A DNA stretch of 64,000 nt from Alphaproteobacteria bacterium (GTDB lineage: Bacteria > Pseudomonadota > Alphaproteobacteria > UBA11073): positions 20,635-84,634 of the forward strand of contig JABDAM010000004.1 of assembly GCA_013289145.1 (NCBI GenBank), in the 5' to 3' direction. Shown one piece after another: positions 6,132-41,603 of the stretch. Position 1 is the first letter of the stretch. Each line of letters starts with the position of its first letter. The translations under genes and the position numbers were made by a program. Under the pieces are notes generated by a model that saw only the letters and a program-made list of their open reading frames with translations, was not told the DNA's origin and ran no database searches.

Positions 6132-6137
6132 CCGTTA

Positions 6138-6848: not shown

Positions 6849-6858
6849 GTCACAATCC

Positions 6859-7497: not shown

Positions 7498-7653
7498 TTT
7501 ACTCTCCTCCGCAATCGGGCGGATACCGTCTGGTTTTATAATCATGTATATCCTCAAGATTATACGCGAATGTACGAAATTTCCGGCCCAAAAGTCAAAT
7601 AATCTCAACCGGAAATACTTGCGCGCCGGGGCCGATGCGTTAGGCTGTGGCCC

Positions 7654-12231: not shown

Positions 12232-12254
12232 CCAATCAACAGCAGAAAAACTCC

Positions 12255-12719: not shown

Positions 12720-12843
12720 CCCCCATTTTTTCACAAAAATATGCGAAAAAATAATCAATAGAATCAACGACTTAAAAGCAAGAAATCGGCGTACATGGGG
12801 TTGTTCGTCACTTTTTTGATGCGGCTTTCCGCTGCTGATAGGC

Positions 12844-24136: not shown

Positions 24137-25066
24137 ATGCAACAAATATCCCCCCTCAAAGTCGTTTTCATGGGTACGCCTGAATTCGCCGCCTGGGCGC
24201 TGGGCGCGCTGATTGATGGCCCGCATAAAGTGATTGCCGTTTATTCCCAACCGCCGCGCCCCAGCGGGCGGGGGATGAAACTCACGCCCTCGCCGGTTCA
24301 GCAGACCGCGGAGAAATTCGACATCCCGGTTTTCACGCCCAAATCCCTGAAAACCGCCGAAGCGCAGGAGCAATTTAAAAACCTCAACGCCGACATCGCC
24401 ATCGTCGCTGCATACGGCCTGATTTTACCTAAAGCTATCCTAGACGCGCCGCGCCTCGGCTGTGTGAATATTCATGCCTCCCTGCTCCCGCGCTGGCGCG
24501 GCGCGGCGCCGATTCAGCGCGCCATTCTGGCGGGCGATGCGCAAACCGGGATTACATTCATGCAAATGGATGAAGGATTGGACACGGGCGCGATGTTGAA
24601 AACTTATCCCGTGACCATTCAAAATGATATGACATCGCATGATTTGCTGATTACCCTCGCCCAGACCGCCGCGCGCGAAATCAACAACCTGATTGATAAT
24701 ATGGCGCAAGGCCGTATCTCTCCCCTGCCGCAACCCGCCGAGGGCGTGACCTATGCCGACAAATTAAAAAAAGAAGAAGGCAAAATCGAATGGAATAAAC
24801 CGGCGAATGACCTTCACCGCATGGTGCGCGCATTAAACCCCTGGCCGGGCGCGTGGTTTGAACATCATGGTGAGAATATAAAAGTCTTATCCGCGGAAAC
24901 AGTGATGGAAAACGGCTCACCCGGCGCGGTTTTACATAGCGACGGCACCATCGCCTGCGGCGAAGGCGCATTACGTATTCTGTCAGCACAGCGTCCTGGG
25001 AAATCACCCGTCGATGGCCGCACGTTCCTCAGCGGCCTGAATTTAAAATCCCGCGATGCGTTATAA
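24137..25066 (+). CDS. fmt: methionyl-tRNA formyltransferase
   Basis: VVFMGTPEFA and HASLLPRWRGAAPIQRAI motifs. Confidence 0.9.
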   Translation: MQQISPLKVVFMGTPEFAAWALGALIDGPHKVIAVYSQPPRPSGRGMKLTPSPVQQTAEKFDIPVFTPKSLKTAEAQEQFKNLNADIAIVAAYGLILPKAILDAPRLGCVNIHASLLPRWRGAAPIQRAILAGDAQTGITFMQMDEGLDTGAMLKTYPVTIQNDMTSHDLLITLAQTAAREINNLIDNMAQGRISPLPQPAEGVTYADKLKKEEGKIEWNKPANDLHRMVRALNPWPGAWFEHHGENIKVLSAETVMENGSPGAVLHSDGTIACGEGALRILSAQRPGKSPVDGRTFLSGLNLKSRDAL

Positions 25067-25790
25067 AATCGTTCTGGAATACGATGGGACAAATTTCGAC
25101 GGCTGGCAAAAACAGCCGAATGGGAAGGGTGTTCAAAATATCGTTGAAAACGCCCTCGCCGCTTTTAATCCGGAAGCGCCGAAAACCATCGTCGCCGGCC
25201 GGACGGACGCAGGCGTTCACGCGCTGGGGCAAGTCATTAGCATCGATATCGCGCGCGAGATCACGCCGAATAAATTATGTGACGCCTTGAATGCGCATTT
25301 GCGCTTTCATCCGATTATCGCAATCAGTGCTGAGGCCGTGGACGAAAATTTCTCCGCGCGATTCAGTGCAAAAAAACGTTATTACCGTTACGTAATCTTA
25401 AACCGGCCCGCGCCGCCCGCGTTGCTGGCCAACCGTGTCTGGCATTTGCCGCATAAATTAAATTTGGCCGTAATGCAAAAAGCGGCGATGGATTTTATTG
25501 GGCAGCATGACTTTACGTCCTTTCGTTCTGTTGCATGCCAAGCGAAAAATCCGGTGCGGCAGATGCTCGATTTCACGATCACGCCGCGTGAAGATCAAAT
25601 TTGGCTGGAATGCTCCGCCCCGGCGTTTTTACATCATCAAGTCCGGAATATGGTCGGCACGCTGGTTGAGATCGGCCGGGGCCAGCGCCCGGCGGATGAC
25701 ATCCCCAGAATCCTCGCCGCCCGGGATCGGGCCGTTGCCGGGGTCACGGCCCCGGCGGGGGGGCTGTATTTTGTCCGCGTGGACTATTAA
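25056..25790 (+). CDS. truA: tRNA pseudouridine(38-40) synthase
   Basis: YDGTNFDGWQKQ and GRTDAGVHALGQV catalytic motif. Overlaps the fmt end. Confidence 0.9.
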   Translation: MRYKIVLEYDGTNFDGWQKQPNGKGVQNIVENALAAFNPEAPKTIVAGRTDAGVHALGQVISIDIAREITPNKLCDALNAHLRFHPIIAISAEAVDENFSARFSAKKRYYRYVILNRPAPPALLANRVWHLPHKLNLAVMQKAAMDFIGQHDFTSFRSVACQAKNPVRQMLDFTITPREDQIWLECSAPAFLHHQVRNMVGTLVEIGRGQRPADDIPRILAARDRAVAGVTAPAGGLYFVRVDY

Positions 25791-25890: not shown

Positions 25891-26694
25891 ATGAGTGCAA
25901 AAGACTTGTTAAAGCGCGGTGCGCAATATGCAGTCAAAACCAGCGGGAACCTGTTAAAGGGTCTCGCGCTGGCGTCGGTTGCGACCTCCGCTATGGCTCC
26001 CGCCTTTGCCCATGGCGCGAAATTGAGCGACGATACCCCTGTCACGACTACGGTAAAAGCAAAAACTTATAATTTCGCCGAACCGACGTGGGAGAAGAAA
26101 TACGAAACCATCCATACGGTTTTGAAGCTTTATACTGCGGCGTCGATGTCTTCGATGGGGTATTATACCGGAACCACTAAGCCAATTGTTCCCTATAGCA
26201 GTAAAGAATTTAATGACCCAAATGACGGCAACCGTTTTTTCTTTGCTGACAATCCGGGAAGGTTCCCAGATTTAAAAACATTATTTGATGCTAGTAATAA
26301 TGAGACTAAAGCAGATATCCTTGCCATCATTGAAACTGTTCATGGTAGAATTCGGGAGATAGCAGGAGCAATTTGCAGTCCTGTAGATGACGGGTTTACT
26401 TGGTCTGCATATCGAAATGCCAATGCTCCTGCTAACATTAATGGAATCGTTAAAAAGATTGAAGACGATCGAGACTTCAGAAATGGTATCCTGGATGATA
26501 TGAAAGATTTTTATGGGCAAATGAAATCGTCGCAAAGTGATCTTGCAACCGCATTAAAGAACGAATTTTCAGCTTATAAAAAGCCTAATCAAGATCCATT
26601 CCGTGAACTTAATCGGAAAATGATAATAAGCTTTATACCTGATCTAAAATTACCCTATATATCTAATCCCCCTCCCTCGCCTAGTGTCGGATAG
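25891..26694 (+). CDS. hypothetical secreted protein
   Basis: 267 aa with a signal-like LALASVATSAMAPAFAHG. AT-rich. Converges on the DotA-like gene with an 11-bp gap. Confidence 0.5.
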   Translation: MSAKDLLKRGAQYAVKTSGNLLKGLALASVATSAMAPAFAHGAKLSDDTPVTTTVKAKTYNFAEPTWEKKYETIHTVLKLYTAASMSSMGYYTGTTKPIVPYSSKEFNDPNDGNRFFFADNPGRFPDLKTLFDASNNETKADILAIIETVHGRIREIAGAICSPVDDGFTWSAYRNANAPANINGIVKKIEDDRDFRNGILDDMKDFYGQMKSSQSDLATALKNEFSAYKKPNQDPFRELNRKMIISFIPDLKLPYISNPPPSPSVG

Positions 26695-26705
26695 TTTTAA
26701 TAATC

Positions 26706-29700
26706 TCAATGTCCGCCAGTTTTGCCTAAACTACCTTGTTGTCGTGTTTGTCGATTAGTTCTAACTTGTTTCGCCATGGCACTCATTTCAGGATAAGGTT
26801 CTTGCCCTGGTGACGGGTTTTGAATCGGATCTTTGATACCTTTCGCAAGATTAGCTTGATAGGTATCATTAGCTTTTTGCCAGCTTGTCTCCGCCTGCAA
26901 CTTTTGCCCCCAGCTATCCAAACCACCGCGCGCGCTGTAGGCTAGGGTTTGCATATAACCGCTGGCTTGCTGTTGCACCATAATCGCGTCGTCGGCGCGG
27001 CTTTCCATACGTTGGCCGATCCAGCCCATGACAAAGTTGGGCAAGAGATCAATCGCCTTGAACGCGGAATTGGCCAGCGTATAGGCCAGCGTGCCGTAAA
27101 AGATGATGTAAACGCCAAGAGAAAGATAACTGGAATCCGAGGTTGTGTTTAAATTTACCACCGTCGGCACAAATAACAGGTTGGCGATCTGAATAATCGC
27201 GTTAAAGGCGATCAATCCCAATACCAGACCGAATACCATCAACATCGGCCGGATAATCACACCTAGCAGCATCGTCATGGCTGATTGGAACTGTTGCGGC
27301 GCAAAACCCTCGCCATCGGTTTTTAAGAGCGACAAAGAAACCAGCGGTGCGGCCAAAACTGCTTCGAATAACAACAGAAACCAGCCCAAAATACCCAGCA
27401 CAAAGCGCGTGAGTGGAATAAGAGTTAGAATGTATGCCGTAAAGCCGAATGAAATCAAAATCATTCCCAAAGGATAAAGCACGCTGCGGGTTGTGGTTTC
27501 GCTTGCAGTTAGGGCCTCTAACTTGTCCCGCAAACCTTGATCAACCGCCGGGTTAGGTAATACGGTTGCGCCGCCCCCGCCCAAATGGGTTTGATTTTTA
27601 TAACTTTTCAGCCCATCTGCATCATTCGAATATCCAGAATCCGTTAATACAAAACTACAAGGACTAGGAGTACCATTTGGATTAGTCGCAGTTACAGGTT
27701 GATCATAACCCGGGTTGTCATAACATTTTACCACCTCCGGCGGTAAAATCAACTTAAAGCCCATTTCCAGAAATTCCTGGCCGTAAACGCCGATCCTGCC
27801 CAATGGATTCCCACCGATATCATTGGTCATGTTGGTGAGCGCGTTTTGAATAAAACTGCCCGCCTTCCCGGTTGGAGAATTGAGCGCGGAAACATTGGAC
27901 GGTTCCCAAGTTTTGACGAAATTTTGAGCCGCGATCCACATGTTCTTACCTGTGGGATCGGAAAAAGGCGCGCCTTCACTGACAATGATCGGTGTGCTCA
28001 CCGAAGGAACCAATCTGGAAGTATCCCCAACCTGGCCATTCGCAGCGGCAATACTCGCCAGCCAAATGGGAGAATAAATCCAGCCATGAACCTTCGCCAT
28101 TTGCTTGAGTTGCTGGTCTAAACTTGCGTTATAGGTGCCAAGCGCGGTTTTAAGCGAACTTTGGAGCTGATCCATATAGCCGCCTGAACCATTATTGGTG
28201 AAAGCGCTTTGGAACTTGGCGTACTCCGCCTGTTGGTCCAGTGTCCAGCCATCTGTCCCGCCAGGTATAACCTGCTTAAGGGCATCCTGCGCAATCTCGT
28301 TGGCGAGTGGGGTTAGAGCTGTAACCAAGTTTTGTGTTGCCGTACTTTGCGTACTCATAATTGCCTGTTGTGTGGGACCAACAGCTGCCTGTATGCAGCC
28401 GCTTGAATTGGCTCCTCCCGGACAGCCCGAGCCTGAATTCGCGCTAGCCGGATTTGGCACTTGGACGGTATAGGAACCGCAATTTACGCCACCGGACGAA
28501 GTAAATGCAGTTGTGGAAGGCAAAGTGGCCGAGGGCGGTAGCTGCGTCGGCGTCGTTCCAGTGGGGCCTACGCTTTGCACAGACCCCATTGCCCCGACGG
28601 TCGTGGTTTTCGTTGATATTTTACTATTTGTATTATAAGTATCGTTCACCGCCTGACACAAAAGCACTTGGAACAAGTTTTGGGCAAAAACTTGGTTCGA
28701 ATTAAGATCCAAAGGCAAACTTGCGATACCGGTCGAGGTACTTGTGCCACCGCCTCCGCCCCCATTCGTTCCAACCATACTATCCGCAAAGGTCGACCAG
28801 ACCTGGGTCGCCTGGGCGCTGCCCCATTTGGCGAGGGATAGGATCATCCATTGTCCGCTGTTCAGACCTGTGGAACTGAGCGGCACCAGCAACCCAAGCG
28901 CGACAATCAAACGGATCGGCGCCCAGACGTGGTTGAAATTTTTGCCGAACGGCACGCCGGTACGCGCGGTTTCCGCAACAGCCGAAATAACAATCCACAA
29001 AACGATAATCCCTGCGAAAATCAGCACTGTAGAACTGTAAAATTGCAGCATCGCACCCAGGCTCTTTGTAATTGCACTTGGCGCAGAGGAACCCGTGCCC
29101 GTGCCGAAAATCGCGTCGATATAAGCAGAGGCGAGATCCGTGTTGGCAGGCATGGAGTTAATACCAGCTAATGTACCGCTATTCGCCCCGCCACCCGACG
29201 TCGGAGCACCCTGCGCATAGGCATGAGCAACACCGAACATCACCCGCATCAAGCCGACAATGATTGTCAGAGAGCCGGAAACCAAAACCCCGATCGCGCT
29301 GATGAAAACAACATATTGCCGCGTCACGAAAACGCGTGCCGCAGCGGCGGCTTCGTCCCTTGCATTCGTTTTTATCCCGGCCCACATCAGCTTCGCCGGC
29401 GGCAGGTTGATTTTGGCCTCTTCCATTAATTGGAATAAACGAAATTTTTTCGCACCGCTGAAAGTCAGGGCTGGATGGTCAGGCGGGATCAAACTGACCG
29501 CTGCCAGGATTTGGGCAAAGGTCTGAACCAAAAGCGCCAAGGGCAGCGCAAGGCCACGCAAAGATAAATTGATCTGCGGCATCCAAAGAAACGCGGCGAC
29601 TTGCCCGCCACTTACCTTTTTGGGGCTGGTCTCCTCAGCGCTGGCGCGCACCGCGGCGATCCGGGCGGCTTTAAGTTCCGCCGTATGGGCCCTGGCAGCC

Positions 29701-29906
29701 GCGTCTGCCTCCGCTTTAATGCGGGCTTCTTGAGCGGCCTGTTGGGAGGCTTCATTCCGGGCAAAGATTTTACGGCCCAAATTAAGCCATTTCGCGACCT
29801 GACTGGCCGACATGCCCACAGGCGGGTTCAAAGGGTCAATCGAGCCAGCCCCCCCCTTCTTTTCCAAAGATTCACCTGTATTCGATGGTTTATCATTATC
29901 CGTCAT
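26706..29906 (-). CDS. DotA/TraY-family polytopic membrane protein (type IVB secretion-associated)
   Basis: ORF reaches 29969, but the ATG at 29906 (MTDNDKPSN) has GGAAGG upstream. The block IDAIFG...LGAM...AETARTGVPFGKNFNHVWAPIRLIVALGLLVP...GLNSGQWMILSLAKWGSAQATQVW matches my recollection of the conserved DotA/TraY N-terminal core. Many TM helices and a Gly/Ser/Thr-rich central domain. Confidence 0.6.
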   Translation of the reverse strand: MTDNDKPSNTGESLEKKGGAGSIDPLNPPVGMSASQVAKWLNLGRKIFARNEASQQAAQEARIKAEADAAARAHTAELKAARIAAVRASAEETSPKKVSGGQVAAFLWMPQINLSLRGLALPLALLVQTFAQILAAVSLIPPDHPALTFSGAKKFRLFQLMEEAKINLPPAKLMWAGIKTNARDEAAAAARVFVTRQYVVFISAIGVLVSGSLTIIVGLMRVMFGVAHAYAQGAPTSGGGANSGTLAGINSMPANTDLASAYIDAIFGTGTGSSAPSAITKSLGAMLQFYSSTVLIFAGIIVLWIVISAVAETARTGVPFGKNFNHVWAPIRLIVALGLLVPLSSTGLNSGQWMILSLAKWGSAQATQVWSTFADSMVGTNGGGGGGTSTSTGIASLPLDLNSNQVFAQNLFQVLLCQAVNDTYNTNSKISTKTTTVGAMGSVQSVGPTGTTPTQLPPSATLPSTTAFTSSGGVNCGSYTVQVPNPASANSGSGCPGGANSSGCIQAAVGPTQQAIMSTQSTATQNLVTALTPLANEIAQDALKQVIPGGTDGWTLDQQAEYAKFQSAFTNNGSGGYMDQLQSSLKTALGTYNASLDQQLKQMAKVHGWIYSPIWLASIAAANGQVGDTSRLVPSVSTPIIVSEGAPFSDPTGKNMWIAAQNFVKTWEPSNVSALNSPTGKAGSFIQNALTNMTNDIGGNPLGRIGVYGQEFLEMGFKLILPPEVVKCYDNPGYDQPVTATNPNGTPSPCSFVLTDSGYSNDADGLKSYKNQTHLGGGGATVLPNPAVDQGLRDKLEALTASETTTRSVLYPLGMILISFGFTAYILTLIPLTRFVLGILGWFLLLFEAVLAAPLVSLSLLKTDGEGFAPQQFQSAMTMLLGVIIRPMLMVFGLVLGLIAFNAIIQIANLLFVPTVVNLNTTSDSSYLSLGVYIIFYGTLAYTLANSAFKAIDLLPNFVMGWIGQRMESRADDAIMVQQQASGYMQTLAYSARGGLDSWGQKLQAETSWQKANDTYQANLAKGIKDPIQNPSPGQEPYPEMSAMAKQVRTNRQTRQQGSLGKTGGH

Positions 29907-30064
29907 GGCTATGCCTTCCCGCGCTATTCCAGCAAATTTAACTGAATCGCCCCTACCCGCACCACTCATAAAATTTTACCAAATTTGTGTGAATATTCAG
30001 TTACGGCGAATTAACACCTAAACGCTTGCCAAATCGGGTGATTTTTGTCTAAATGCGCCGCAGT

Positions 30065-30139
<75 letters not shown>

Positions 30140-30252
30140 CTCTCGAGTCCGAGGACGTCCCAAGAAGTCCGAAAACACCAATGAATACAAGGGTATTTTG
30201 GCCATTTAGCGTCCCAGGACGTCCGGGGAAGTTCCTTGACATCCGGTATAAT

Positions 30253-30304
30253 TGGGGGTACCTCAGGGGGTCTCCGACTTCTTGAAATCAGAGGTACCCC
30301 CATG
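30253..30304 (+). promoter_or_regulatory. hairpin enclosing the integrase SD and abutting the start codon
   Basis: GGGGGTACCTC (30253-30263) pairs perfectly with GAGGTACCCCC (30290-30300). The GAGG Shine-Dalgarno lies inside the 3' arm. ATG at 30302. Confidence 0.45.
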
Positions 30305-31501
30305 CCGCTTTCCGATACCGCCATACGAAATGCGAAGCCAAAAACGAAGCCTTATAAGCTTCCTGACAGCGGTGGACTCTATCTGTTGATCCATCCATCG
30401 GGTGGAAAACGCTGGCGGTATAAATATCGTTGGCTCGGTAAAGAAAAACTGTTGGCGTTTGGAACTTACCCAGATGTTAAATTGGTGGAAGCCAGGGAAG
30501 CGCATGCGAAAGCGCGAAAAATACTGGCGGCGGGTAATGATCCAGGCGAAGCCAAAAAAGAGGAAAAACGTCAAGTTGCAATTAACCACGAAAATAGTTT
30601 TGAAGCCATTGCGCGCGAATGGCATGAAAGCCGCAAGGAAATTTGGACCCCGCGCTATGCGGAATTTATGCTGAAACGCCTCGAAGCTGATGTTTTCCCG
30701 AAGCTAGGCGCTCGCCCCATCGCCAATATTAGCGCGCCCGAACTACTGTCTGTTTTGCGTCTGATTGAAAAACGCGGTGCTCTAGAAATGGCCCAGCGCG
30801 CCATGCAGACTTGCAGCCAGATTTTTATGTTTGGGATTGTGACAGGCCGCGCGAAGGATAATCCGGCAATTAATCTCAAGGGCGCGCTCAAAACACCGAA
30901 GAAAAAACATTACGCGCACCTGGATGCTGTCGATCTGCCCGAGTTTTTCCAAAGGCTGGAAACTTATGACGGCAATATTCAAACTAAACTAGCACTGAAA
31001 CTGCTGGTACTGACCTTTGTTAGGACTGCCGAATTGCGCGGGATGCAATGGCCTGAAATTAATTTTGACAAGTCCGAATGGCGTATCTCTGCTGAACGGA
31101 TGAAAATGCGCACAGCGCATATTGTGCCGTTGTCCGAACAAGCCGTGAAAATATTGCAGGAAATGAAGAAATATACGGGTTCCTGGAATTACGTATTTAC
31201 CAACCAATTCAAGCCGATCAAATGCATGAGCGAAAATACCATTTTGTATGCTCTTTACCGTATGGGATACCGGGATCGCGCAACCGGTCACGGTTTCCGC
31301 CATACCGCATCAACGATTTTAAATGAAAACGGTTTTAAGGGGGATGCGATTGAGCGTCAGTTGGCGCATATGGAGCGCAAAAAAGTTCGCGGTGTTTATA
31401 ATCACGCGGAATACTTGCCAGAACGCAAAAAAATGATGCAATGGTGGGCCGATTATTTGGACGAAGCCAGTGAAGAAATCCATTCCAAGGAAGGCCGATA
31501 A
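30302..31501 (+). CDS. int: P4-type tyrosine integrase
   Basis: N-terminus MPLSDTAIRNAKPKTKPYKLPDSGGLYL (DUF4102-type) and C-terminal HGFRHTAST...RQLAH...YNHAEYL catalytic region. Start chosen by similarity to the second integrase (ORF track starts at 30236). Confidence 0.9.
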   Translation: MPLSDTAIRNAKPKTKPYKLPDSGGLYLLIHPSGGKRWRYKYRWLGKEKLLAFGTYPDVKLVEAREAHAKARKILAAGNDPGEAKKEEKRQVAINHENSFEAIAREWHESRKEIWTPRYAEFMLKRLEADVFPKLGARPIANISAPELLSVLRLIEKRGALEMAQRAMQTCSQIFMFGIVTGRAKDNPAINLKGALKTPKKKHYAHLDAVDLPEFFQRLETYDGNIQTKLALKLLVLTFVRTAELRGMQWPEINFDKSEWRISAERMKMRTAHIVPLSEQAVKILQEMKKYTGSWNYVFTNQFKPIKCMSENTILYALYRMGYRDRATGHGFRHTASTILNENGFKGDAIERQLAHMERKKVRGVYNHAEYLPERKKMMQWWADYLDEASEEIHSKEGR

Positions 31502-31512
31502 CCTTGCCAGAA

Positions 31513-32124
31513 TTAGGGCAACCCAATTCGTGCCAAGAAGCTAGTGAATCTTTGGCTAACATCTTCTCTATGCAATTCCGAAACGCTGCATATATACTTT
31601 TCTGAAAAAAGGCGTCTAAGCTCTTCTACATCAACTGAAAAATAATGCTTGAAATCAATAATCGAGGGGACGATAGCCACATCGGTTGGAAAATTTAAAT
31701 AATGATATCTCGGATTAGAATTATTTTGCAAAGGGTTCATTACACTATTTGATTTTCTGTCGAAGGTTCGCATTGTCATTGACAGTTCTGATAAATGCTC
31801 TCCAGTATACACATGCTCTGCATTGTAAAGAGGTGCGACTAAAACCGAGAGAAGGTATTTATCCTGATTGGGAATGCCTGGCTCTGATCTGAACCTATTG
31901 TCCTGTTCTAAATCACAGTCTTGTGTTAATACAATGATAAGAGGAAAGGAGATTTTATGTATCTCTATATTCCCCTCACTTTCAGAAACAGATTGAATTA
32001 GGTCCACATTCCTAAAAATATCTCCCTGGGATATTCTTTGAATATTTTTTATTTCAACCTTAGTCGTTCTAATCATTGACAATCCTAGCACGCACGACAA
32101 TTTTCCTGGGCTTGGAAATGCCAT
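31513..32124 (-). CDS. hypothetical protein
   Basis: ORF 31513-32142 begins with TTG. The first ATG is at 32124 and another at 32076. Features ISQGDIF...IIVLTQDCDLEQD. No family recognised. Confidence 0.45.
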   Translation of the reverse strand: MAFPSPGKLSCVLGLSMIRTTKVEIKNIQRISQGDIFRNVDLIQSVSESEGNIEIHKISFPLIIVLTQDCDLEQDNRFRSEPGIPNQDKYLLSVLVAPLYNAEHVYTGEHLSELSMTMRTFDRKSNSVMNPLQNNSNPRYHYLNFPTDVAIVPSIIDFKHYFSVDVEELRRLFSEKYICSVSELHREDVSQRFTSFLARIGLP

Positions 32125-32252
32125 ATTTCTTTTCAGATACAACTATCTTGTTATCTATGTTGGGCGGCTTTTTTTCTATTGGCTCTGTTGCAGAGCCAGG
32201 AAAGTATTTAGGGTCAAAGGGTTGTGGTAACTCGTTCGCCATTGCAAGCAAC

Positions 32253-33053
32253 CTATGAATTGTCTTCTGCATTCATAATTTTACGCGTATCGTCCAATAT
32301 AGCACTCTCAAAAATCTTTTGTATTCTACTATGTGCTTTTTTTGCACATTCTTTCATTTCAAGCTTGCCAAAGGCACCAATTGAATACCCATCTAAATCA
32401 AGCACAAACTGTTTCTGCCGTATTGGTGCTGGGTAATCAGGGTTTGAAATTCCATACTGGAAAGTAATAAACTCGCCGTCGAAATTAAATTCGAGGACGC
32501 TAAATGCACGTGAAATTTTTTCTTTTTCTGTATTAGCAAAATCTAAACTAGATAGAAGTGATTTATTGATTAACTTATTCCATACTAATGGATTTTTTGC
32601 GACTTTTTGTTCAATAACATTTATATAGCGCAAGCCTACCCGGTTTATATGAAGATTGGGGTATAAGCGAAATAATTCATCTACAGATGGGTAAATATTC
32701 TCCTGAAAATTCTCAAAACTTGTATATTTACGGAAGCTTGCAATGAAGGTATTCTGATTTAAGACTAAAGTTTTATCTCTATTTATTCCATGATAAAGCC
32801 AATCCCTCATTTCGGTTTGAGATGCTTGAACACTAATATTAGATGGTTCTTGGGCATTATTAGATATAGCAACTGAATGAGCTTGAGTTTTTCTCGGTTC
32901 CGCAATTGGAAATTGTCCAATAATTATATTTGCAAGACTTTGCGGCAATGAATCTGCAAACTCCGTAATGGGGGTAGGGAAATCTAACTTTAGAACCACT
33001 TCACGTATAAATGGCGCTTTATAGCTGATTGCGTCGTAGTTAGTTTCGTCCAT
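32253..33053 (-). CDS. hypothetical protein (possibly TIGR04255-like family)
   Basis: ATG at 33053 with GGGGA upstream. The N-terminal YKAPFIREVVLKLDF resembles my recollection of the TIGR04255 family N-terminus. This is unverified. Confidence 0.45.
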   Translation of the reverse strand: MDETNYDAISYKAPFIREVVLKLDFPTPITEFADSLPQSLANIIIGQFPIAEPRKTQAHSVAISNNAQEPSNISVQASQTEMRDWLYHGINRDKTLVLNQNTFIASFRKYTSFENFQENIYPSVDELFRLYPNLHINRVGLRYINVIEQKVAKNPLVWNKLINKSLLSSLDFANTEKEKISRAFSVLEFNFDGEFITFQYGISNPDYPAPIRQKQFVLDLDGYSIGAFGKLEMKECAKKAHSRIQKIFESAILDDTRKIMNAEDNS

Positions 33054-33254
33054 TGTGTCCCCGCCAAACTTTCTAGTTAGCAAATTTCATACCACACAGC
33101 GTAGCAAAGTCTATAAACCTAAAAAACAATTTTATCTGATCTGGCAATCATTCTCTTGTATTTTTGGCCAGAGATCATTAATCGTAAAAGTTAATAGGCG
33201 TTGGTTGCATGGGGTTTAGCGACAAGATATAATGCTCGGGACGGGGAACCACCC

Positions 33255-34766
33255 ATGAACGTACTAAACCAGCAGGCAGGTTTTATCCTGCTCTTTGTCT
33301 TTGCGGCAGTGATGATTTTTATCACATCATTCGCGTCACGCGGCAAAATCTGGCACACCGCGTCCGGTTTTATGGCTGCGGGCCGGAATGTTCCATGGTG
33401 GCTGGGCGCAATTTCTATCGCTGTTACTTGGATTTGGGCACCCGCACTGTTTGTCAGCACACAACAGGCATATCAGCAGGGTATCCCTGGGCTGTTCTGG
33501 TTTGTGTTTCCGAATATGTTGAGTCTGATGGTCATTGCCCCATTGGCTGTAAAAATCCGTGACTTATTACCTGCGGGCTACACCCAACCCGAATGGATTG
33601 AAAAACGATTTGATAAAGGCACCCGCAATTTATTCTTGGTGCCCTTCTTTTGGTATCAGGTAATGGCCGTCACAGTGCAACTCTACGCGGGCGGTAATAT
33701 TTTTTCATTGCTGACAGGTGTTCCGTTATTCGCGGTGATGACGGTTCTCGCCGCAACAACACTGATTTACAGCCTGATTTCCGGTATGCGCGCATCCATT
33801 GTCACGGACTTTCTGCAATATGGCCTTATCCTTATCGCAATCATTGTAATTGTGCCCTGGACGATTTCAGCGGCGGGCGGTGCACAAGCAATCCTTGGCG
33901 GCATTGGCGGCGTGACAGGTGAACATAAAAGCCTGTTTGACGCGCAAGTTGCCTTCAATTTCGGCATCGTGACCAGCATCGGTTTGATATCAGGCTCATT
34001 GTCAGACCAGCAACATTGGCAACGGGCATTTGCCATTAAAAAATCCGGCCTTATCCGCGCTTACATCGTCGCGGGTTTGTTATTCGGCATTGTGCCGATA
34101 GCCATTGCCTTGCTCGGCTTCATCGGCGCAAATCCGGCGTTCGGAATTTCACTGCCCGCCGGTGTGGATGCATCCATGATTGGCGTTGCGGTGGTTCGGC
34201 ATTTTCTACCTGCGTGGGCGGTAATTGCTTTTCTGGTTATGATGCTGGGCGGCCTGTGCGCGACACTTGATTCCGGCATGTGCGCCGCCGGTGCGTTATA
34301 CGCCATGAATTGCACGCGCTATTCTTACGAAGAAATGCAGGTGCACGAAAAAGATGCACGCGGCGAACCGCTTACCGTAGCAGAAGAAACCATCAAAGGC
34401 ATCCTAGACCAGAAAATTATCCAGCGCGGGCGGCTGGCGATGGTTGGGGTTACGCTTATAGGATTTCTGATTGCTGCGCTGGTAGTTGAAATTCCCAGCT
34501 TTGGTCTCAAATACCTCTGGTGGGTGTTCAACACAATTGCCGCCTGTGTTGCCGCACCGATTGTTTTGAGTTTCTATTGGAAGCGGGTCACAAGCCTGGG
34601 CGTGAAGGTCGGCGTTACCATTGCGCTTGTCGGCGGCATCCCATTATTCGTTTACAGCAATTTGAATGACATGATTGGGCTGACTGTGGCATCCTCGGTC
34701 GGCATCGTTGCCGTAACGGTTTTGAGTATGTTGGTGTTTCAATCCAAAGAACAGCATCCCATATAA
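33255..34766 (+). CDS. sodium:solute symporter (SSF) family transporter
   Basis: About 500 aa with roughly 13 hydrophobic helices. FMAAGRNVPWWLGAISIAVTWIWAPALF is typical of SSS-family N-terminal helices. Confidence 0.7.
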   Translation: MNVLNQQAGFILLFVFAAVMIFITSFASRGKIWHTASGFMAAGRNVPWWLGAISIAVTWIWAPALFVSTQQAYQQGIPGLFWFVFPNMLSLMVIAPLAVKIRDLLPAGYTQPEWIEKRFDKGTRNLFLVPFFWYQVMAVTVQLYAGGNIFSLLTGVPLFAVMTVLAATTLIYSLISGMRASIVTDFLQYGLILIAIIVIVPWTISAAGGAQAILGGIGGVTGEHKSLFDAQVAFNFGIVTSIGLISGSLSDQQHWQRAFAIKKSGLIRAYIVAGLLFGIVPIAIALLGFIGANPAFGISLPAGVDASMIGVAVVRHFLPAWAVIAFLVMMLGGLCATLDSGMCAAGALYAMNCTRYSYEEMQVHEKDARGEPLTVAEETIKGILDQKIIQRGRLAMVGVTLIGFLIAALVVEIPSFGLKYLWWVFNTIAACVAAPIVLSFYWKRVTSLGVKVGVTIALVGGIPLFVYSNLNDMIGLTVASSVGIVAVTVLSMLVFQSKEQHPI

Positions 34767-34900
34767 TTTGGCATCTATATTCTGCTCAATCTGCTGGAGT
34801 ATTCATAATAGGCTTGGCGAGGATATCTCGCATTCCACACTACCGTTCCCCTTTGGCGTAAAGAATCCTCGTAATTCTCTGTCGATGAAAATAAATTTTT

Positions 34901-34931
34901 CTTTCGGACGTTATGGGACGTCCTCGGACTC
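34901..34931 (-). repeat. inverted copy of the Island-1 attL-proximal sequence
   Basis: The reverse complement GAGTCCGAGGACGTCCCATAACGTCCGAAAG matches 30145-30176 (GAGTCCGAGGACGTCCCAAGAAGTCCGAAAAC). The adjacent 34932-34950 resembles a degenerate tRNA 3' end. Confidence 0.7.
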
Positions 34932-35005
34932 TTGCGTGGTGGGCGCTGCTCTTGCCAGTATAGAAAAAAGATACAAATAATCTAGCGTTAATACCCACTA
35001 AAGTT

Positions 35006-35040
35006 GCGGGCAGGATATGCAATGTTGGCCAACATGCGTT
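35006..35040 (-). other. oriT candidate (IncP / T-DNA-border-like nic core plus palindrome)
   Basis: The minus strand reads ATGTTGGCCAACAT (14-bp palindrome, 35022-35035), then TGCATATCCTGCCCGC. TATCCTGCCCG matches the RP4 nic region as I recall it. The plus strand GGCAGGATAT matches the T-DNA border core. It lies immediately upstream of mobC and the relaxase gene. Confidence 0.55.
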
Positions 35041-35114
35041 GGCGCAACCTTGCGTGTCTTATTCGCCTGCGGCTCAACGACATTTTGCGCTTTGCGGGAA
35101 AGGTTTGGGGTTGC

Positions 35115-35468
35115 ATGACGACAAAACAATTATCACGGCAACGCGTGCGGCGTCTGCGCGTGTTGGTGCTGCCGGATGAGGAAGAGGCCATCAAGGCGAA
35201 TGCCGAGCATTGCGGTCTGAGCGTATCGGCTTACCTGCGGAAGCTTGGCTGCAATTATTTTCCCAAATCCGTGCTGGACTACCGCGCAGTGGTAGAACTC
35301 TCCAAACTGAATGCCGACCAGGGACGATTGGGCGGTCTGCTCAAGATGTGGCTGTCCAATGATGAACGCTTTGAAGGCGGCCAGGTCAGCCGCGTAGATG
35401 TGCAGCGGCTGTTCCAGGACCTGACGGCGAACCAGCGGGCTTTGTCGGACACGGTGAAAAAACTATGA
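35115..35468 (+). CDS. mobC: MobC-type relaxosome accessory protein
   Basis: RLRVLVLPDEEEAIKANAEHCGLSVSAYLRKLG is the typical MobC ribbon-helix-helix segment. The stop overlaps the relaxase start (ATGA). Confidence 0.75.
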   Translation: MTTKQLSRQRVRRLRVLVLPDEEEAIKANAEHCGLSVSAYLRKLGCNYFPKSVLDYRAVVELSKLNADQGRLGGLLKMWLSNDERFEGGQVSRVDVQRLFQDLTANQRALSDTVKKL

Positions 35469-37375
35469 TCCCGAAACGCATCCCGATGCGCAATGTCAAT
35501 GTCAGCAGCTTTAGCAAGCTAGCGGATTATATCACCCACGCCCAGGACAAGCATGAACGGGTGGGAACTATTACGGTCACCAACTGCCATGCAACCGATC
35601 CCTGGTGGGCGGCGCAGGAGGTTGAAGGCGTGCAGCGGCAGAACATCCGCAGTAAGCTGGATAAGACCTATCACCTATTGATCTCCTTCCGTGCAGGGGA
35701 ACAGCCGACGCCTGAAGTTTTAAAACAGATAGAGGAGCGGTTTTGCAAGGAACTGGGCTACGGCGAACACCAGCGCATCAGTGCCGTGCATCATGACACC
35801 GATCACCTGCATATCCATGTCGCGATCAATAAAATCCATCCCGATAAACTGACGGCACTGGAACCTTATTACGACATGCCCAAACTGGGCGCGCTGGCCA
35901 GTAAGCTGGAAATTGAATACGGCCTTCAACAAGATAATCACATTCCGCGCCTGACCAAGAGCGCGGCCAAAGCCCGGGACATGGAACAGTCCGCCGGAAT
36001 TGAAACTTTGATCGGCTGGGTGAAGCGCGGATGCCTGAATGATTTATTGGCAGCACCGTCATGGGAGTCATTGCATGAAGTTCTTGCACACAATCGTCTG
36101 CAAATCCTGCCGCGCGGCAACGGGTTGATTATCACCAACGGCACCGTCGGCGCCAAAGCCAGTTCCATTGACCGGCAATTGTCCAAACATGCGCTGGAAA
36201 AGAGACTTGGCGCATTCCGTGCCAGTGCGGCGCTGGATCATCAAAACGCCAAAGTGAAAGCTGAGTATCAGATCAGGCCCATGGCTTCCAAGGTGAATAC
36301 CACAGTGTTGTGGCAGCAATATCAGCGGGAGCGTGCCGGTATTAAAGCGCGGCAAAGCGGCCCCGAGCGTGATGCCAACGAAGATCGGAAACGCCGCATT
36401 GAAACCGCCAAGCGTGAGGCCCGGCAGCAGCGCAGCCTGTTTCGTTTGGTGAAGGGGCGCTGGGCCAGGAATATGTTGTATTCCCATGCCAACAACAACC
36501 TGCTCAAGAAAATCCGCCGGATCAACGAGGATTACATCAAGAACCGCCGTGAGATGTATGCCGATAGTAAGCGACTAATCTGGTATGACTGGCTTAAGGA
36601 AAAGGCTAAGCAGGGTAATACCCAGGCTTTGGCCGTATTGGCCAACCGTTATGAACGCACCTTGCCGCATAGTAATGCCAATGTGCTCACGGCAGCGGGC
36701 GTAACGATGGTAAGCGGCCAAGTTCCCACGATTAATCTTAAGATTGATAACGTGACCAAGCGCGGCATCGTGCATTACCGTGGCGACCGCCAGATCATCC
36801 GCGATGACGGCAAGGCATTCCGGCTATCCGATAATCTCAGCGACGATCAGCTGAAATCGGTCCTGCAGCTTGCAATCAGGCGCTTCGGCGACAACCTTGA
36901 GGTCAAAGGCACGGAGAAGTTTAAAACCGCCATGATGCAGATTGCCGGCAGCAACCTGTTCAACGTGACCTTCACTGATCCGGCCCTGGAAGCGCAGCGC
37001 AAGAATCTGCGGGCAGAAAGATTATCACAGGTCACCCACAGGCAAGAAACGCCGGAGGGCGTGGCGAGAAAATACATTACCGAGCGCAATGAAAAACGTG
37101 CACGCGGGTTCTCTCATATCTTGCCGCACCGGCCATATACGGACAAGGACATCGGCCAATATGCGTTTGCAGGGCTGAACCGCACGGAAAAAGCCAATCT
37201 GCTGCTGCTGAAAACCCCATCTCAGGAAATCCTGGTCAAGCCGGTGGATGACAAAACCGCCTACCGCGTGAAGTACCTGGATATCGGCAATCAGATTGAC
37301 GTGGCAGCTGATGGTGCCGTGCAAGCACGCGCGGAAGGTCACGTCCGCATGCATCGGCTCGTCAGAACGCGGTGA
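35465..37375 (+). CDS. traI: MOBP-family relaxase (RP4 TraI-like)
   Basis: N-terminus MIPKRIPMRNVNVSSFSKLADYITHAQDK parallels RP4 TraI, with Tyr at position 22. His triad HHDTDHLHIHVAINKIHP. Confidence 0.88.
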   Translation: MIPKRIPMRNVNVSSFSKLADYITHAQDKHERVGTITVTNCHATDPWWAAQEVEGVQRQNIRSKLDKTYHLLISFRAGEQPTPEVLKQIEERFCKELGYGEHQRISAVHHDTDHLHIHVAINKIHPDKLTALEPYYDMPKLGALASKLEIEYGLQQDNHIPRLTKSAAKARDMEQSAGIETLIGWVKRGCLNDLLAAPSWESLHEVLAHNRLQILPRGNGLIITNGTVGAKASSIDRQLSKHALEKRLGAFRASAALDHQNAKVKAEYQIRPMASKVNTTVLWQQYQRERAGIKARQSGPERDANEDRKRRIETAKREARQQRSLFRLVKGRWARNMLYSHANNNLLKKIRRINEDYIKNRREMYADSKRLIWYDWLKEKAKQGNTQALAVLANRYERTLPHSNANVLTAAGVTMVSGQVPTINLKIDNVTKRGIVHYRGDRQIIRDDGKAFRLSDNLSDDQLKSVLQLAIRRFGDNLEVKGTEKFKTAMMQIAGSNLFNVTFTDPALEAQRKNLRAERLSQVTHRQETPEGVARKYITERNEKRARGFSHILPHRPYTDKDIGQYAFAGLNRTEKANLLLLKTPSQEILVKPVDDKTAYRVKYLDIGNQIDVAADGAVQARAEGHVRMHRLVRTR

Positions 37376-37429
37376 AAGACGCTCCGACAGTCTCTCTCAG
37401 GTTAGTGATAGAGAGGTAAACAGATTGTA

Positions 37430-38230
37430 TCAGGGCAGATAAATTGTACCGGACATATAGGTTTGCGCCTGACCACTGATCATGACGCGTTCGTCTTGCA
37501 ACAGACAGTGGAACTCACCGCCCCTTTTTGAGAGTTGCCGCGCGAAAAGTTTATTTTTCCCCAGGCGTTCCGCCCAATACGGCACCAGCATACTATGCGT
37601 GGAACCTGTTGCCGGGTCTTCTTCCACAGCGTCACCCGGCCAGAAAGACCGGCTGACAAAATCGCAATCCTTACCGGGTGCAGTAATACAAGTTGAGCGA
37701 CCAAGCTGGCCGAGGATTTTAAAATCCGGTTTGATGTTGATGATGTCATCCTGATTCGGGAACACAAACATATAATCACGTTTTAAATATGACTGTTGAG
37801 GTCGTGCGCCGCCTAACCCAGCGATAGCCGCATCTGGTATTTTATTGATTGCCTGTGGCGGCCATGATGGAAAATCAAGGGTCAGCCAGCCATCTTCTTT
37901 TTTAACTGTTAAATCTCCAGAAAAGCGCGTGGTAAAATGAACCTCATTTTTAGGATAAGATAGATGGTTAAAGATCACATGCGCCGATGCCAGGGTTGCA
38001 TGACCGCATAAATTAATCTCATCCAGAATGGTAAACCAACGTATTTCGAATCCGTCCGGCGTAGGAACAAAAAATGCAGTCTCGGATTGGTTATGCTCAA
38101 TAGTGATGACTTGCAGTATTTCATCAGGCAACCACGCTGGCAACGGACAAACCGCCGCCGGATTGCCGCCAAAAATCCGGTCGGTGAAGGCATCTACAAG
38201 ATAAACTGGGATAGAATTCATTGTCTGCAC
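37430..38230 (-). CDS. PhzF-family isomerase
   Basis: VDAFTDRIFGGNPAAV...SETAFF...IRWFT...E..LCGHATLA are classic PhzF/YddE motifs. Confidence 0.85.
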   Translation of the reverse strand: MQTMNSIPVYLVDAFTDRIFGGNPAAVCPLPAWLPDEILQVITIEHNQSETAFFVPTPDGFEIRWFTILDEINLCGHATLASAHVIFNHLSYPKNEVHFTTRFSGDLTVKKEDGWLTLDFPSWPPQAINKIPDAAIAGLGGARPQQSYLKRDYMFVFPNQDDIINIKPDFKILGQLGRSTCITAPGKDCDFVSRSFWPGDAVEEDPATGSTHSMLVPYWAERLGKNKLFARQLSKRGGEFHCLLQDERVMISGQAQTYMSGTIYLP

Positions 38231-38382
38231 CGTACAATGTTTTTGCTCGTCTTGCCATATCTATGATGGCCGAAGCAGGCATCGTTGCAGTGGTCATCTA
38301 GGAATTGTACACAGTTATTTTTTGATTACCTCCTCTTTTTGGCCCTGAATAATTTCCTCACACTTCACTACGCGCAGTTTCA

Positions 38383-39171
38383 TCATTCCAGTGGTGTGTA
38401 GTCCGTTTCCGATAACGGTTGATCGTTGCCAAGACGATATTGCAGAAAACGATTCATCACAGTCCACGTCTTTCTCAAAACATCCTGCCGTGTTGCCGAT
38501 GTGATATAAGCAGATGACCCATGGCGGGGTGCGCTTGAAGCACTTGTAATAACTTCCAAATATGGCCTAGATATTCGCAACGTATTACGCATTTTTTCCC
38601 ACGCTTGCTCTCGTTCAGTGTTATTTTTCTCATCTTTTCCCCATAACGCTTTGCGTAAAGCTTCAATTACGCGACCGCAATTTGTGAGACTGTTATTCCC
38701 GTAGCGGATTGCAGAAACCAGATCACGCAGTGCGAGCATTAGAGTCGGATTTGTAACCATGAGTTTCATAAGATCGATCATATTGACATGCACACGGCCA
38801 TCATCATCAGTTACCCTGCAAACGGTGGCTATGGCTGCGAGGTCTGGTGCTTTTCCTATTAGTAGATGCTCTGATCCATCAGGATATTCAGACTTGTCTA
38901 GGTGGAAGTGCAAAACCATTCCTGCTGAAAAAACAAACAAATCTATTATGGAACTAACCCAATCATATACATATTGAAGAACCCAACCTAGAATCTCTTC
39001 ATTCCAACGGTTGGTTTCACATGTGACGGTAATGATCGACTTTTTGATTGTTATTGTAGCCTTTAGGTCGATATCAACCTCGTCGATCCTATAGCCTATC
39101 TGCGGCTCAAACTCTAAGTCAAAGCTGTACCAAGGCGGTTCAACTTTCCCAAAAATTTTAAACGTAGCCAT
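38383..39171 (-). CDS. hypothetical protein
   Basis: 262-aa ORF downstream of, and co-oriented with, the NYN gene. No family recognised. Confidence 0.5.
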   Translation of the reverse strand: MATFKIFGKVEPPWYSFDLEFEPQIGYRIDEVDIDLKATITIKKSIITVTCETNRWNEEILGWVLQYVYDWVSSIIDLFVFSAGMVLHFHLDKSEYPDGSEHLLIGKAPDLAAIATVCRVTDDDGRVHVNMIDLMKLMVTNPTLMLALRDLVSAIRYGNNSLTNCGRVIEALRKALWGKDEKNNTEREQAWEKMRNTLRISRPYLEVITSASSAPRHGSSAYITSATRQDVLRKTWTVMNRFLQYRLGNDQPLSETDYTPLE

Positions 39172-39296
39172 ATTTACACCATACCGCTGAGATGATCATA
39201 CCGAACAGAATACAGTATCAGGGAAAGGTCAAGGGTTCGTTGACTCAGTGTGCATGGTTAAAATACTATAACGTTTAGCAAATGCAATGCGATAGC

Positions 39297-39956
39297 TTAA
39301 CGCCACTCCTGAGGGCGGGTTAAATTCGTTCCAGGTATGGTTTCCGGCAGCTGACTTTGTCCCAACAAACTTGGTGTTATGTGTTTGTGAAAATGCGCAT
39401 GTTGCGCTAATTGTTTTGATGCACGTGGTTTGCGACCCAGTTCGTTAGCTACATTGCGCCGTTCTGGTGTAAATAATCCGATGGATTTATTGGGATGATG
39501 TTTCCTTACCAGATGCATGGCCTGTGCTAAATCGCTATCGTTGGATACAATAACAGCACAATCATAATCATTTAGCCATGCGTCATTAAGAAAATGGACG
39601 GACAAATTAACGTCTGAACCTTTTTCTTCGGTTTTGATTACTTCGGCGTATTTTTGACCGGTAGTCGGCTTGGCCAGTGGCATCCTTACGGGATGGGTAA
39701 GGAAGTGCCCCAAATAAATCTCCATCTCAGGGATATAGGCTTTCAGCGCATCAAAGTATCTATCCTGTCGCTGTGGTTTGGATACGTCCTTTTCGGTGCC
39801 GCTAACTTTTGCGGTAAATAATTTGACTTTGTGAATTTGATTGGTATCTCTCAGGAGCAATTCAGACAATTTTTTAAGATCAAGCCATCTGTAGGGAGTA
39901 TCTTTCAAGCTGGCATAATACAAGTTGAAGCCATCTATGTAGATGTTTGTTCGCAT
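39297..39956 (-). CDS. NYN (PIN-like) domain protein
   Basis: MRTNIYIDGFNLYY...EKGSDVNL...CAVIVSNDSDL matches the acidic-residue pattern of NYN/LabA-type nucleases. Internal ATG of ORF 39297-40109. Confidence 0.7.
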   Translation of the reverse strand: MRTNIYIDGFNLYYASLKDTPYRWLDLKKLSELLLRDTNQIHKVKLFTAKVSGTEKDVSKPQRQDRYFDALKAYIPEMEIYLGHFLTHPVRMPLAKPTTGQKYAEVIKTEEKGSDVNLSVHFLNDAWLNDYDCAVIVSNDSDLAQAMHLVRKHHPNKSIGLFTPERRNVANELGRKPRASKQLAQHAHFHKHITPSLLGQSQLPETIPGTNLTRPQEWR

Positions 39957-40211
39957 TGGCGGTTCCCAGAAAAGGCAAAGGCCTCTTGCGAGGCCCTTGC
40001 GGCCTACGGTCGAAACCGTAGGGGTGATAGAACACAAGTATAACAGATATGATTCGGTAATTGCAAGAGGTGATTCGCGCGTCCTAATAACCGATGTGAT
40101 TTTGGCCAATTTTGGCCTAATTTCCTAAAACATGGCAGTTTTCTGTCAATTTTCTTGCTTTCTAGAAGGCCTGACGGTAGGTTTTAGCTAAGATTATCAA
40201 GGAAGTCGTAT

Positions 40212-41411: not shown

Positions 41412-41583
41412 AATTTCATTTTTATTCGTTCAAAAATGTGTTGTGGTCATTGTTGAGAATAACCTGGGAATCCCGAGTTCGAATGAGGTTTGCTCTGTAA
41501 ATTTTAGGGGGTACTTTCGGGGGTTCTTTATCTCGGCTCGTTTTGTATTATGCGTTATAAATCAATAAGTTGTGTAATTTTGT

Positions 41584-41603
41584 GAATCCTAGCACCCCAG
41601 CCA
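41584..41603 (+). repeat. attR core of Island 1
   Basis: GAATCCTAGCACCCCAGCCA is identical to the tRNA-Gln 3' end at 30120-30139. Confidence 0.85.

Follow-up and report, generated by a model that had tools for sequence, protein, structure and literature searches.

The window analysed here, a stretch of 64,000 nt from the genome of an uncultured soil alphaproteobacterium (the source genome, G000; 1.42 Mb in 60 contigs, 69.85% complete), carries on its minus strand a dotA gene whose product is likely a central-channel subunit, one of a set of paralogues, in a Dot/Icm-like system that is dispersed and directed at a host, i.e., a secretion system of type IVB (T4BSS). By profile match the protein belongs to the DotA/TraY family, and the machine itself is present and dispersed in the genomes of the same bacterial family. 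DotA is duplicated there, its N-terminal membrane module is widespread, and copies of the window's clade keep a convergent partner gene. The bacterial family comprises four species genomes: the source genome, G001 of the same genus, and the two other genomes G002 and G003. Its order appears to hold no other family, as the genomes found next nearest share only the class.

The window protein as a DotA/TraY homologue

Residue numbers count from the upstream Met1 of a 1087-codon open reading frame (ORF), and nucleotide positions are those of the window. According to the ORF call and the translation, this frame is intact and occupies 26706-29969 on the minus strand. All peptide strings quoted in an earlier reading of the sequence (hereafter, the original prediction) are found in it: IDAIFG at residues 277-282, AETARTGVPFGKNFNHVWAPIRLIVALGLLVP at 332-363, and GQWMILSLAKWGSAQATQVW at 372-391. 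The true dotA start is probably Met22 (29906), which gives a protein of 1066 aa and a gene at 26706-29906. This start is favoured because a GGAAGG ribosome-binding site lies 7 nt 5' of Met22, because Met22 is almost unvarying across 15 aligned homologues, and because the protein database entry for dotA has the 1066-aa form; the ATG of Met1 (29969) has no ribosome-binding site. The gene and the parts of its product are as follows.

26706-29906, minus strand: dotA paralogue of clade A (ORF and translation; TIGR04346 match at residues 280-985; ribosome-binding site and alignment for Met22)
29616-29906, minus strand: clade-specific leader, residues 22-118, a long helix rich in Ala, Glu, Lys, and Arg
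29211-29615, minus strand: N-terminal membrane module, residues 119-253, about 130 aa (invariant columns, hydropathy, AlphaFold2)
27015-29132, minus strand: canonical DotA/TraY core, residues 280-985 (full TIGR04346 profile; 9ngy blocks); parts of the core are the transmembrane (TM) helices TM1/TM2 at about 299-399, the extended domain in the periplasm at about 400-826, and the hydrophobic helices at 827-1014
26709-26927, minus strand: disordered C-terminal tail, residues 1015-1087, poorly conserved (14% mean identity)

The NCBIfam model for DotA/TraY, TIGR04346, matches the window protein with 229.8 bits (cut-off 100), aligning residues 280-985 with profile positions 2-656 of 656; in the genome-wide search the score is 231.4 bits. 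NF033886, the equivalog model for Dot/Icm DotA, gives 146.9 bits, which is below its 500-bit cut-off, and a Pfam scan of the protein reports no match. Judged by these profile scores, the window protein is a member of the DotA/TraY family and not an equivalog of the Legionellales DotA. A profile built from the 15 homologues matches the structure of Legionella pneumophila DotA (PDB 9ngy/9nh0) with an E-value of 1.1e-32, and this is the only solved structure that it finds. The alignment falls into three blocks on Legionella DotA (residues 25-490, 739-825, and 911-1045), which correspond to TM1/TM2 with the extended domain on the one hand and to the hydrophobic helices of the C-terminal part on the other. 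The family assignment, which the original prediction had based on conserved motifs, is thus supported by both the family profile and the structure.

Hydropathy peaks are located at residues 314-332, 348-366, 833-874, and 904-940, and the helices modelled by AlphaFold2 (AF2) agree with them. The protein is therefore polytopic, as had been proposed, with two TM helices, a large loop (466 residues between the hydropathy peaks, with 6 Cys inside), and C-terminal hydrophobic helices. Mean identity is highest in the TM core and the hydrophobic helices (62% and 61%, respectively) and drops to 22% in the extended domain, where four Cys are conserved (438, 497, 749, and 771). More than 80 columns are invariant among the 15 homologues at 29-50% identity, and about 20 full-length orthologues of comparable length are present in metagenomes. 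As for the Gly/Ser/Thr/Asn-rich low-complexity domain of the original prediction, the composition of residues 395-830 fits the description (Gly 11.5%, Thr 10.8%, Ser 10.1%, and Asn 7.1%), but only residues 400-412, 460-479, 510-524, and 751-828 are truly of low complexity or disordered, and AF2 models the remainder as helices and beta sheet. The AF2 predicted local distance difference test (pLDDT) is below 50 from residue 993 onward.

A long N-terminal extension with an Ala/Glu/Lys-rich segment had also been described. The segment exists: residues 60-115 contain 29% Ala and many Arg, Glu, and Lys, and AF2 predicts a single long helix at residues 55-112. The leader of which it is part (residues 22-118) has 24% mean identity within clade A and is probably cytoplasmic, since it has no hydrophobic stretches. 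Most of the extension, however, turns out to be a widespread DotA/TraY module and not a peculiarity of this gene. In the alignment to Legionella DotA, residue 25 of the latter falls on profile position 213, which leaves about 210 profile positions with no Legionella counterpart. Within the module (residues 119-253), which with 44% identity is better conserved than the leader, a TM helix at 131-157 is followed by a loop containing the invariant D-H-P-A motif and then by a hydrophobic helix of 46 residues (206-251). This helix ends in a conserved A-x-A-Q (AHAYAQ, 247-252), which resembles a signal-peptidase I site and stands at the position where Legionella DotA has its cleavable signal peptide.

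The extension-only profile was searched against 1.84 billion representative proteins (E<=1e-3) and matched 209; almost all of these matches lie at the very N-terminus of DotA/TraY proteins that are 850-1150 aa long. About 12 full-length DotA proteins match from near the start of the extension, including the leader (profile positions 1-75); the other matches cover only positions of about 75-207. All seven module-bearing proteins sampled are DotA/TraY proteins, with the TIGR04346 match starting at residue 153-186. The module was not found in the IncI-like TraY of Serratia, the DotA of a Bosea plasmid, or Legionella DotA. It is present in 15 of 301 sampled alphaproteobacterial genomes, one of which, G043, is flagged as unpublished and enters no other result here; nearly all of the 15 are 1.1-2.9 Mb in size, with tandem DotA pairs in several of them.

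Three of these 15 genomes, G120, G223, and G023, encode the module as a stand-alone ORF of 124-153 aa (L033 9344-9718, L032 11086-11547, and L031 9868-10242). In G120 this ORF overlaps the dotA start by 20 nt, which represents either a split gene or translational coupling; in G223 it comes after a dotA, and in G023 the ORF and dotA are on separate contigs. Given these separate ORFs, the module acts like a small membrane protein in its own right, one that has often been fused to DotA. In position and build it is reminiscent of TraX/IcmV; TraX has a charged helix followed by two TM segments, and its gene lies just upstream of traY. All tests of sequence similarity to these proteins failed: hhalign against Serratia TraX gives a probability of 0.2%, the models NF038219 and NF033887 are silent (E<=10) on the window DotA, the module alone, and nine short module-bearing proteins (stand-alone ORFs and short database matches), and a hidden Markov model (HMM) of the module scores about 0 bits against the TraX-like ORFs of five plasmids. 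The module is therefore not called a homologue of TraX or IcmV, and a fused IcmV/TraX is kept only as a functional hypothesis based on analogy. In one Atlas cluster of DotA/TraY proteins, 19% of the members carry the Pfam domain PF28070 ("TraX-like"). Found in about 200 protein clusters and lying outside the family models tried, the module deserves a model of its own.

Dispersed machinery, DotA paralogues, and the convergent partner

Calling dotA an orphan, as the original prediction did, holds for the window only, where searches of the genome with family models and IncI proteins match nothing but dotA; T4BSS genes are present elsewhere in the genome. The genome-wide scan for Dot homologues that it had proposed locates DotH, DotI, DotG, DotF, and DotN on a single contig, C28. 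There the dot/icm genes directly follow the yejABEF transporter and keep the Legionella order icmL-K-E-G-C-D-J: a weak IcmL-like gene, IcmL/DotI (173.9 bits), IcmK/DotH (261.9 bits), IcmE/DotG, IcmG/DotF, a TraQ-like gene, a DUF6750 gene, and IcmJ/DotN (104.4 bits, cut-off 100). Homologues of the IncI-like TraM/N/O/P/Q/T were matched one-to-one by phmmer. After icmJ, where Legionella has icmB/dotO, C28 carries two genes with no family assignment (604 and 416 aa; L008 12338-15609). They were considered as a split IcmB/DotO and rejected, having no similarity to Pfam, NCBIfam, the PDB, or TraU.

The relatives supply further components. DotM (180-222 bits), DotC (about 250 bits), and DotB are found in G001, G002, and G003, with DotB reaching 380-402 bits on the Dot/Icm DotB model as compared with 185 for the IncI-like TraJ. 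DotD is present in G002 within a dotD-dotC-dotB-icmT cluster, and both G002 and G003 have a TrbC-like DotL (394 bits) beside DotM, as well as a TraU-like DotO (31% identity). On the complete 1.93-Mb chromosome of G002, T4BSS genes lie at about 10-14, 26, 281, 430, 735, 1178, and 1922 kb and adjoin ftsH, ybgC, and other housekeeping genes. Together with the C28 genes, the DotB/C/D/L/M/O and IcmT of the same family bear out the earlier suggestion that the gene belongs to a type IVB system scattered over an alphaproteobacterial genome. The T4BSS is real, chromosomal, dispersed, and vertically inherited in the family, the last because all four genomes carry it with the same two DotA clades.

IcmX (NF038225) and TraW (NF033888) have no match in G000-G003, where the HMM controls likewise matched nothing, and neither have the IcmV and TraX HMMs. 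The models NF038223 and NF038224 give only generic OmpA-like matches, and NF038217 proved to be unrelated. In G002, a 557-aa gene after the clade-B DotA was considered as IcmX and showed no match. Around the G002 dotD-dotC-dotB-icmT cluster (L019, G002 420-440 kb; 5648-8906 and 11905-13125), GspE-like and GspF-like genes precede and a TcpQ/STN-domain protein follows, an arrangement that recalls the thin-pilus (pil) genes accompanying IncI transfer genes; a 977-aa gene with no assignment also stands upstream of the cluster.

Genomes G000-G003 have 2-3 DotA matches each, and DotH, DotC, DotM, and DotO match once each. The original prediction missed these 2-3 paralogues, as well as the conserved convergent partner gene and the widespread nature of the N-terminal module. 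In the source genome, the second DotA is a fragment on contig C59, 38% identical to the window protein. A maximum-likelihood tree of 41 DotA proteins resolves two clades, A and B, with a Shimodaira-Hasegawa-like approximate likelihood ratio test support of 95-99, each clade with copies from G000, G002, and G003. Clade A includes the window gene, two G002 copies, one G003 copy, and about 20 metagenome proteins; in clade B are the fragment from C59, a single copy from G002, two from G003, and three proteins from metagenomes. Since both clades hold copies from several genomes, the tree indicates a DotA duplication older than the genera. G001 has a further clade-A dotA adjoining bipA. Contig C2 of the source genome ends within a bipA fragment that is 91% identical, and a third DotA copy is therefore probably unassembled there. 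In G003 the clade-B copies form a pair of 1296 and 886 aa about 3.5 kb apart (283-291 kb; L020/L014), with two genes with no assignment (746 and 364 aa) between them; G074, G165, and G223 have tandem DotA pairs as well.

The convergent partner of the window dotA is a plus-strand gene whose 267-aa product has a signal-peptide-like N-terminus, and whose stop lies 11 nt from the dotA stop. The protein has no Pfam or NCBIfam match, and a word search finds no database relatives. A convergent ORF of 164-329 aa occurs at all ten clade-A loci examined, ending 0-15 nt from the dotA stop or overlapping dotA by 4 nt. Most of the translations start with a signal-peptide-like segment, and none of the ORFs scanned has a Pfam match. 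A jackhmmer search from the window partner over about 10,000 ORFs converges on exactly the partners of the four nearest DotA relatives (P0004, P0005, P0006, and P0009), which are at least 30% identical to one another. The partners at remoter clade-A copies show no detectable relationship, which points either to a gene that evolves very fast or to a slot that is filled anew. Since IcmX caps the DotA protochannel in Legionella and IcmX/TraW is undetectable here, the secreted partner is a candidate for the IcmX role, as suggested by its position, export signal, and co-inheritance.

The same pairing bears on another explanation, in which the clade-A DotA and its secreted partner form a co-opted membrane system of two genes, acting on its own as a channel or exporter and needing no other part of the T4BSS. 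Clade-A copies are always distant from other dot/icm genes and always have their own convergent partner, and in G002 it is the clade-B copy that lies near dotL/dotM and, across the record origin, near the icmLKE cluster, with the clade-A copies remote. DotA of Legionella is also said to be released from cells. However, the best-conserved parts of the window protein (61-62%) are the TM core and the hydrophobic helices, the segments that in Legionella make up the chamber and touch DotG. The TIGR04346 profile is matched end to end, and no genome was seen with a clade-A DotA but with no T4BSS core, DotH being found in all four genomes. Such a co-option is hence considered improbable, and a channel subunit of the T4BSS remains the preferred reading.

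The dotA locus, the tRNA-Gln island, and the conjugation question

The neighbours of dotA and the features of the adjoining island are listed below.

24137-25066: fmt, neighbour of the dotA locus
25056-25790: truA, neighbour of the dotA locus
25891-26694, plus strand: unnamed convergent partner gene (267 aa), between truA and dotA
30065-30139, plus strand: tRNA-Gln(UUG), found by ARAGORN, divergent from dotA
30117-30139: attL of the island, i.e., the 3' end of the tRNA, with a 21/23 repeat at 41581-41603
30236-31501: P4-type integrase, in the island
35465-37375 (ORF): MOBP relaxase, PF03432, 121 bits, in the island

The placement of dotA between truA and tRNA-Gln in the original prediction is right as to the flanks, but the 267-aa gene separates truA from dotA. 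This fmt-truA/tRNA-Gln setting is not a conserved one, as it is kept neither in G002 and G003 nor in the metagenome relatives. Promoter and terminator scans gave scores no better than those of shuffled sequence. The tRNA-Gln(UUG) is the right-hand limit of the dotA locus and the attachment site of an integrative mobilisable island of about 11.5 kb (window 30140-41603) on the 3' side of the tRNA, at whose left end G+C falls to 0.42-0.46. A second relaxase of the PF03432 family is encoded on contig C9 of the source genome. Cargo status of dotA is rejected, the island being on the opposite side of tRNA-Gln.

In the metagenome relatives L025 (5259-6683), L026 (1178-2527), and L028 (688-915), an integrase or AlpA-type gene lies just upstream of the clade-A dotA, and ARAGORN found no tRNA in the two integrase loci scanned (L028 was left out). 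The region upstream of clade-A dotA thus seems to be a recurrent integration spot.

On a rival reading, the window gene is a component or remnant of a chromosomally integrated I-type (IncI-like) conjugative element and serves DNA transfer in place of effector delivery. The P4-type integrase and the MOBP relaxase are less than 9 kb from dotA, the three relatives just mentioned have mobility genes in the same place, the G002 dotDCB cluster has type IV pilus-like genes at its flanks, as with the thin-pilus genes of IncI, and IcmW is undetected. In addition, DotA/TraY is common on plasmids, with 82 plasmid records that include alphaproteobacterial plasmids; around the DotA of the Bosea plasmid, nearly all genes encode hypothetical proteins. 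Nevertheless, dotA lies on the 5' side of tRNA-Gln and outside the 11.5-kb island, and the plasmid TraY proteins are just 25-31% identical to it, in blocks. The system and the same two DotA clades occur in all four family genomes, which argues for vertical inheritance, its genes are dispersed among housekeeping genes, and the family DotB is far closer to the Dot/Icm model than IncI-like TraJ is. Finally, no relaxase of PF03432, the sole relaxase family searched, is found in the complete G002 or the near-complete G003, and both of these carry the whole T4BSS. A conjugative role of the present gene is accordingly rated as quite improbable, and a domesticated host-directed system is favoured because of vertical inheritance, scatter among core genes, the Legionella-like DotB, and small genomes.

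That the window gene is a decaying, functionless duplicate is scarcely credible: several DotA copies exist and divergence is rapid (14-24% identity) in the leader, the tail, and the extended domain, but the 1087-codon frame is intact, the invariant columns and the full-length metagenome orthologues of similar length described above are hard to reconcile with decay, and partner synteny is kept.

Ankyrin-like genes, said earlier to be nearby, are absent from the contig of the window at E<=1e-5. At least six proteins with Ank_2 are encoded elsewhere in the source genome, on contigs C1, C13, C14, C20, C21, and C55; at the same threshold there are two ankyrin-repeat proteins in G002 and none in G001 or G003. 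These unevenly distributed proteins are possible effector candidates.

Proposed role, comparison with known systems, and significance

In Legionella, DotA together with IcmX makes up a pentameric, capped protochannel (Yue et al. 2025, PMC12501162), and DotA and IcmX are regarded as the analogues of VirB6 and VirB5, respectively (PMC12857230). By extension, the window protein would be a VirB6-like inner-membrane subunit, the pentamer of which forms the central protochannel of the type IVB machine, and in the single machine present the clade-A copy would provide an alternative, or mixed, central channel. The conserved TM1/TM2 and hydrophobic helices would build the chamber in the inner membrane, with the fast-evolving, disulfide-bearing extended domain facing the periplasm and docking a cap protein. 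The best cap candidate is the secreted partner product, which would act in place of the undetectable IcmX. The N-terminal module, with its pair of helices across the membrane and its DHP loop, may together with the cytoplasmic helix anchor the channel or regulate it from the cytoplasmic side, and in view of the conserved AxA-Q site the module may be cut off by signal peptidase. The most likely task of such a system, we infer, is the delivery of proteins into a eukaryotic host, probably a protist, and not conjugation.

Several results weigh against this view. DotB, DotC, DotD, DotL, DotM, and DotO were not found in the 69.85%-complete source genome, so their presence there is deduced from the relatives, and DotO was also not found in G001 of the same genus. 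Of the Legionella-style effector adaptors, IcmW (NF038222) was the one searched for, and it has no match in G000-G003. The evidence for host association consists of genome size, the ankyrin genes, and the secretion system, and the ankyrin proteins, moderately frequent and uneven, speak against a close parallel with Legionella. The only sequencing run containing the dotA sequence is the source soil metagenome. The missing relaxase of G002 and G003 refers to a single family. As for the protein models, that of the window DotA is mediocre (pLDDT 59.8, predicted template modelling score (pTM) 0.48). For the partner considered as IcmX/TraW, hhalign gives a probability of 0.1%, no similarity to TraW is seen, and there is no match in the PDB, IcmX included; partners of the remoter clade-A copies have no detectable homology to one another. 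The Atlas entry for the partner reports no features, and its model is poor (pTM 0.26).

The nearest characterised relative of the window protein is Legionella DotA, and the nearest systems are Dot/Icm and IncI Tra. Like Legionella DotA, the window protein has two TM helices, a large Cys-containing periplasmic domain, and C-terminal hydrophobic helices, and is encoded away from most other dot/icm genes. The lineage also shares with Legionella homologues of DotB, DotC, DotD, DotG, DotH, DotI, DotL, DotM, DotN, DotO, and IcmT. In contrast, a cleavable signal peptide forms the N-terminus of Legionella DotA, in place of which the window protein has about 230 extra residues (the helical leader and the two-helix membrane module), and Legionella has one DotA where the window's family has 2-3 paralogues per genome. 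IcmX, IcmV, and IcmW are not detectable in this family, and the bacterium is an alphaproteobacterium and not a member of Legionellales.

With IncI TraY (Serratia pSF001 as the IncI-like example), the window protein likewise shares family membership, and the rest of the apparatus corresponds one-to-one. IncI TraX, a small two-TM protein with a charged N-terminal helix, encoded directly upstream of traY, resembles the module in architecture and position, but detectable sequence similarity of the module to TraX/IcmV is lacking. Moreover, unlike in IncI, the genes here are chromosomal, dispersed, and duplicated, and G002 and G003 have no PF03432 relaxase.

The rvh type IV secretion system of Rickettsiales is reportedly also scattered over the chromosome, with its VirB6-class subunit multiplied and enlarged and the other parts remaining few. 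That system is P-type (type IVA) with a true VirB6, whereas the system of the window is I-type (type IVB) with DotA; the likeness in subunit multiplication is therefore convergent and not homologous.

Effector-type T4BSSs have been placed in Legionellales and related Gammaproteobacteria (PMC11338181, PMC8896642), and Holosporales have been credited with a type VI secretion system (PMC11909080). No account of an alphaproteobacterial Dot/Icm-like system on a chromosome came up in a full-text literature search, subscription literature being outside it.

A bolder reading, which we put forward tentatively and consider rather unlikely as a whole, is that small-genome alphaproteobacterial lineages possess a dispersed chromosomal Dot/Icm-like injection system of their own design. 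The DotAs of the window's family would be interchangeable, each fused to a formerly separate small membrane protein that is maybe the functional equivalent of IcmV/TraX, and the clade-A copies would each be paired with a fast-evolving secreted cap that replaces IcmX. If this is true, exchange of DotA-cap pairs would serve to retarget secretion or to regulate it, a parallel to the multiplied VirB6 of Rickettsiales.

As for the biology of these bacteria, a whole family of alphaproteobacterial genomes of about 2 Mb, from soil and other metagenomes, retains a probably effector-type T4BSS, and this retention marks its members as likely undiscovered associates of protists. DotA has been shown only recently to be the gate of the machine, and natural variants are useful for understanding how the channel is anchored, capped, and opened. 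Such variants are at hand here, in that a machine has more than one copy of DotA, the added N-terminal module has its own gene in some genomes, and IcmX is not recognisable.

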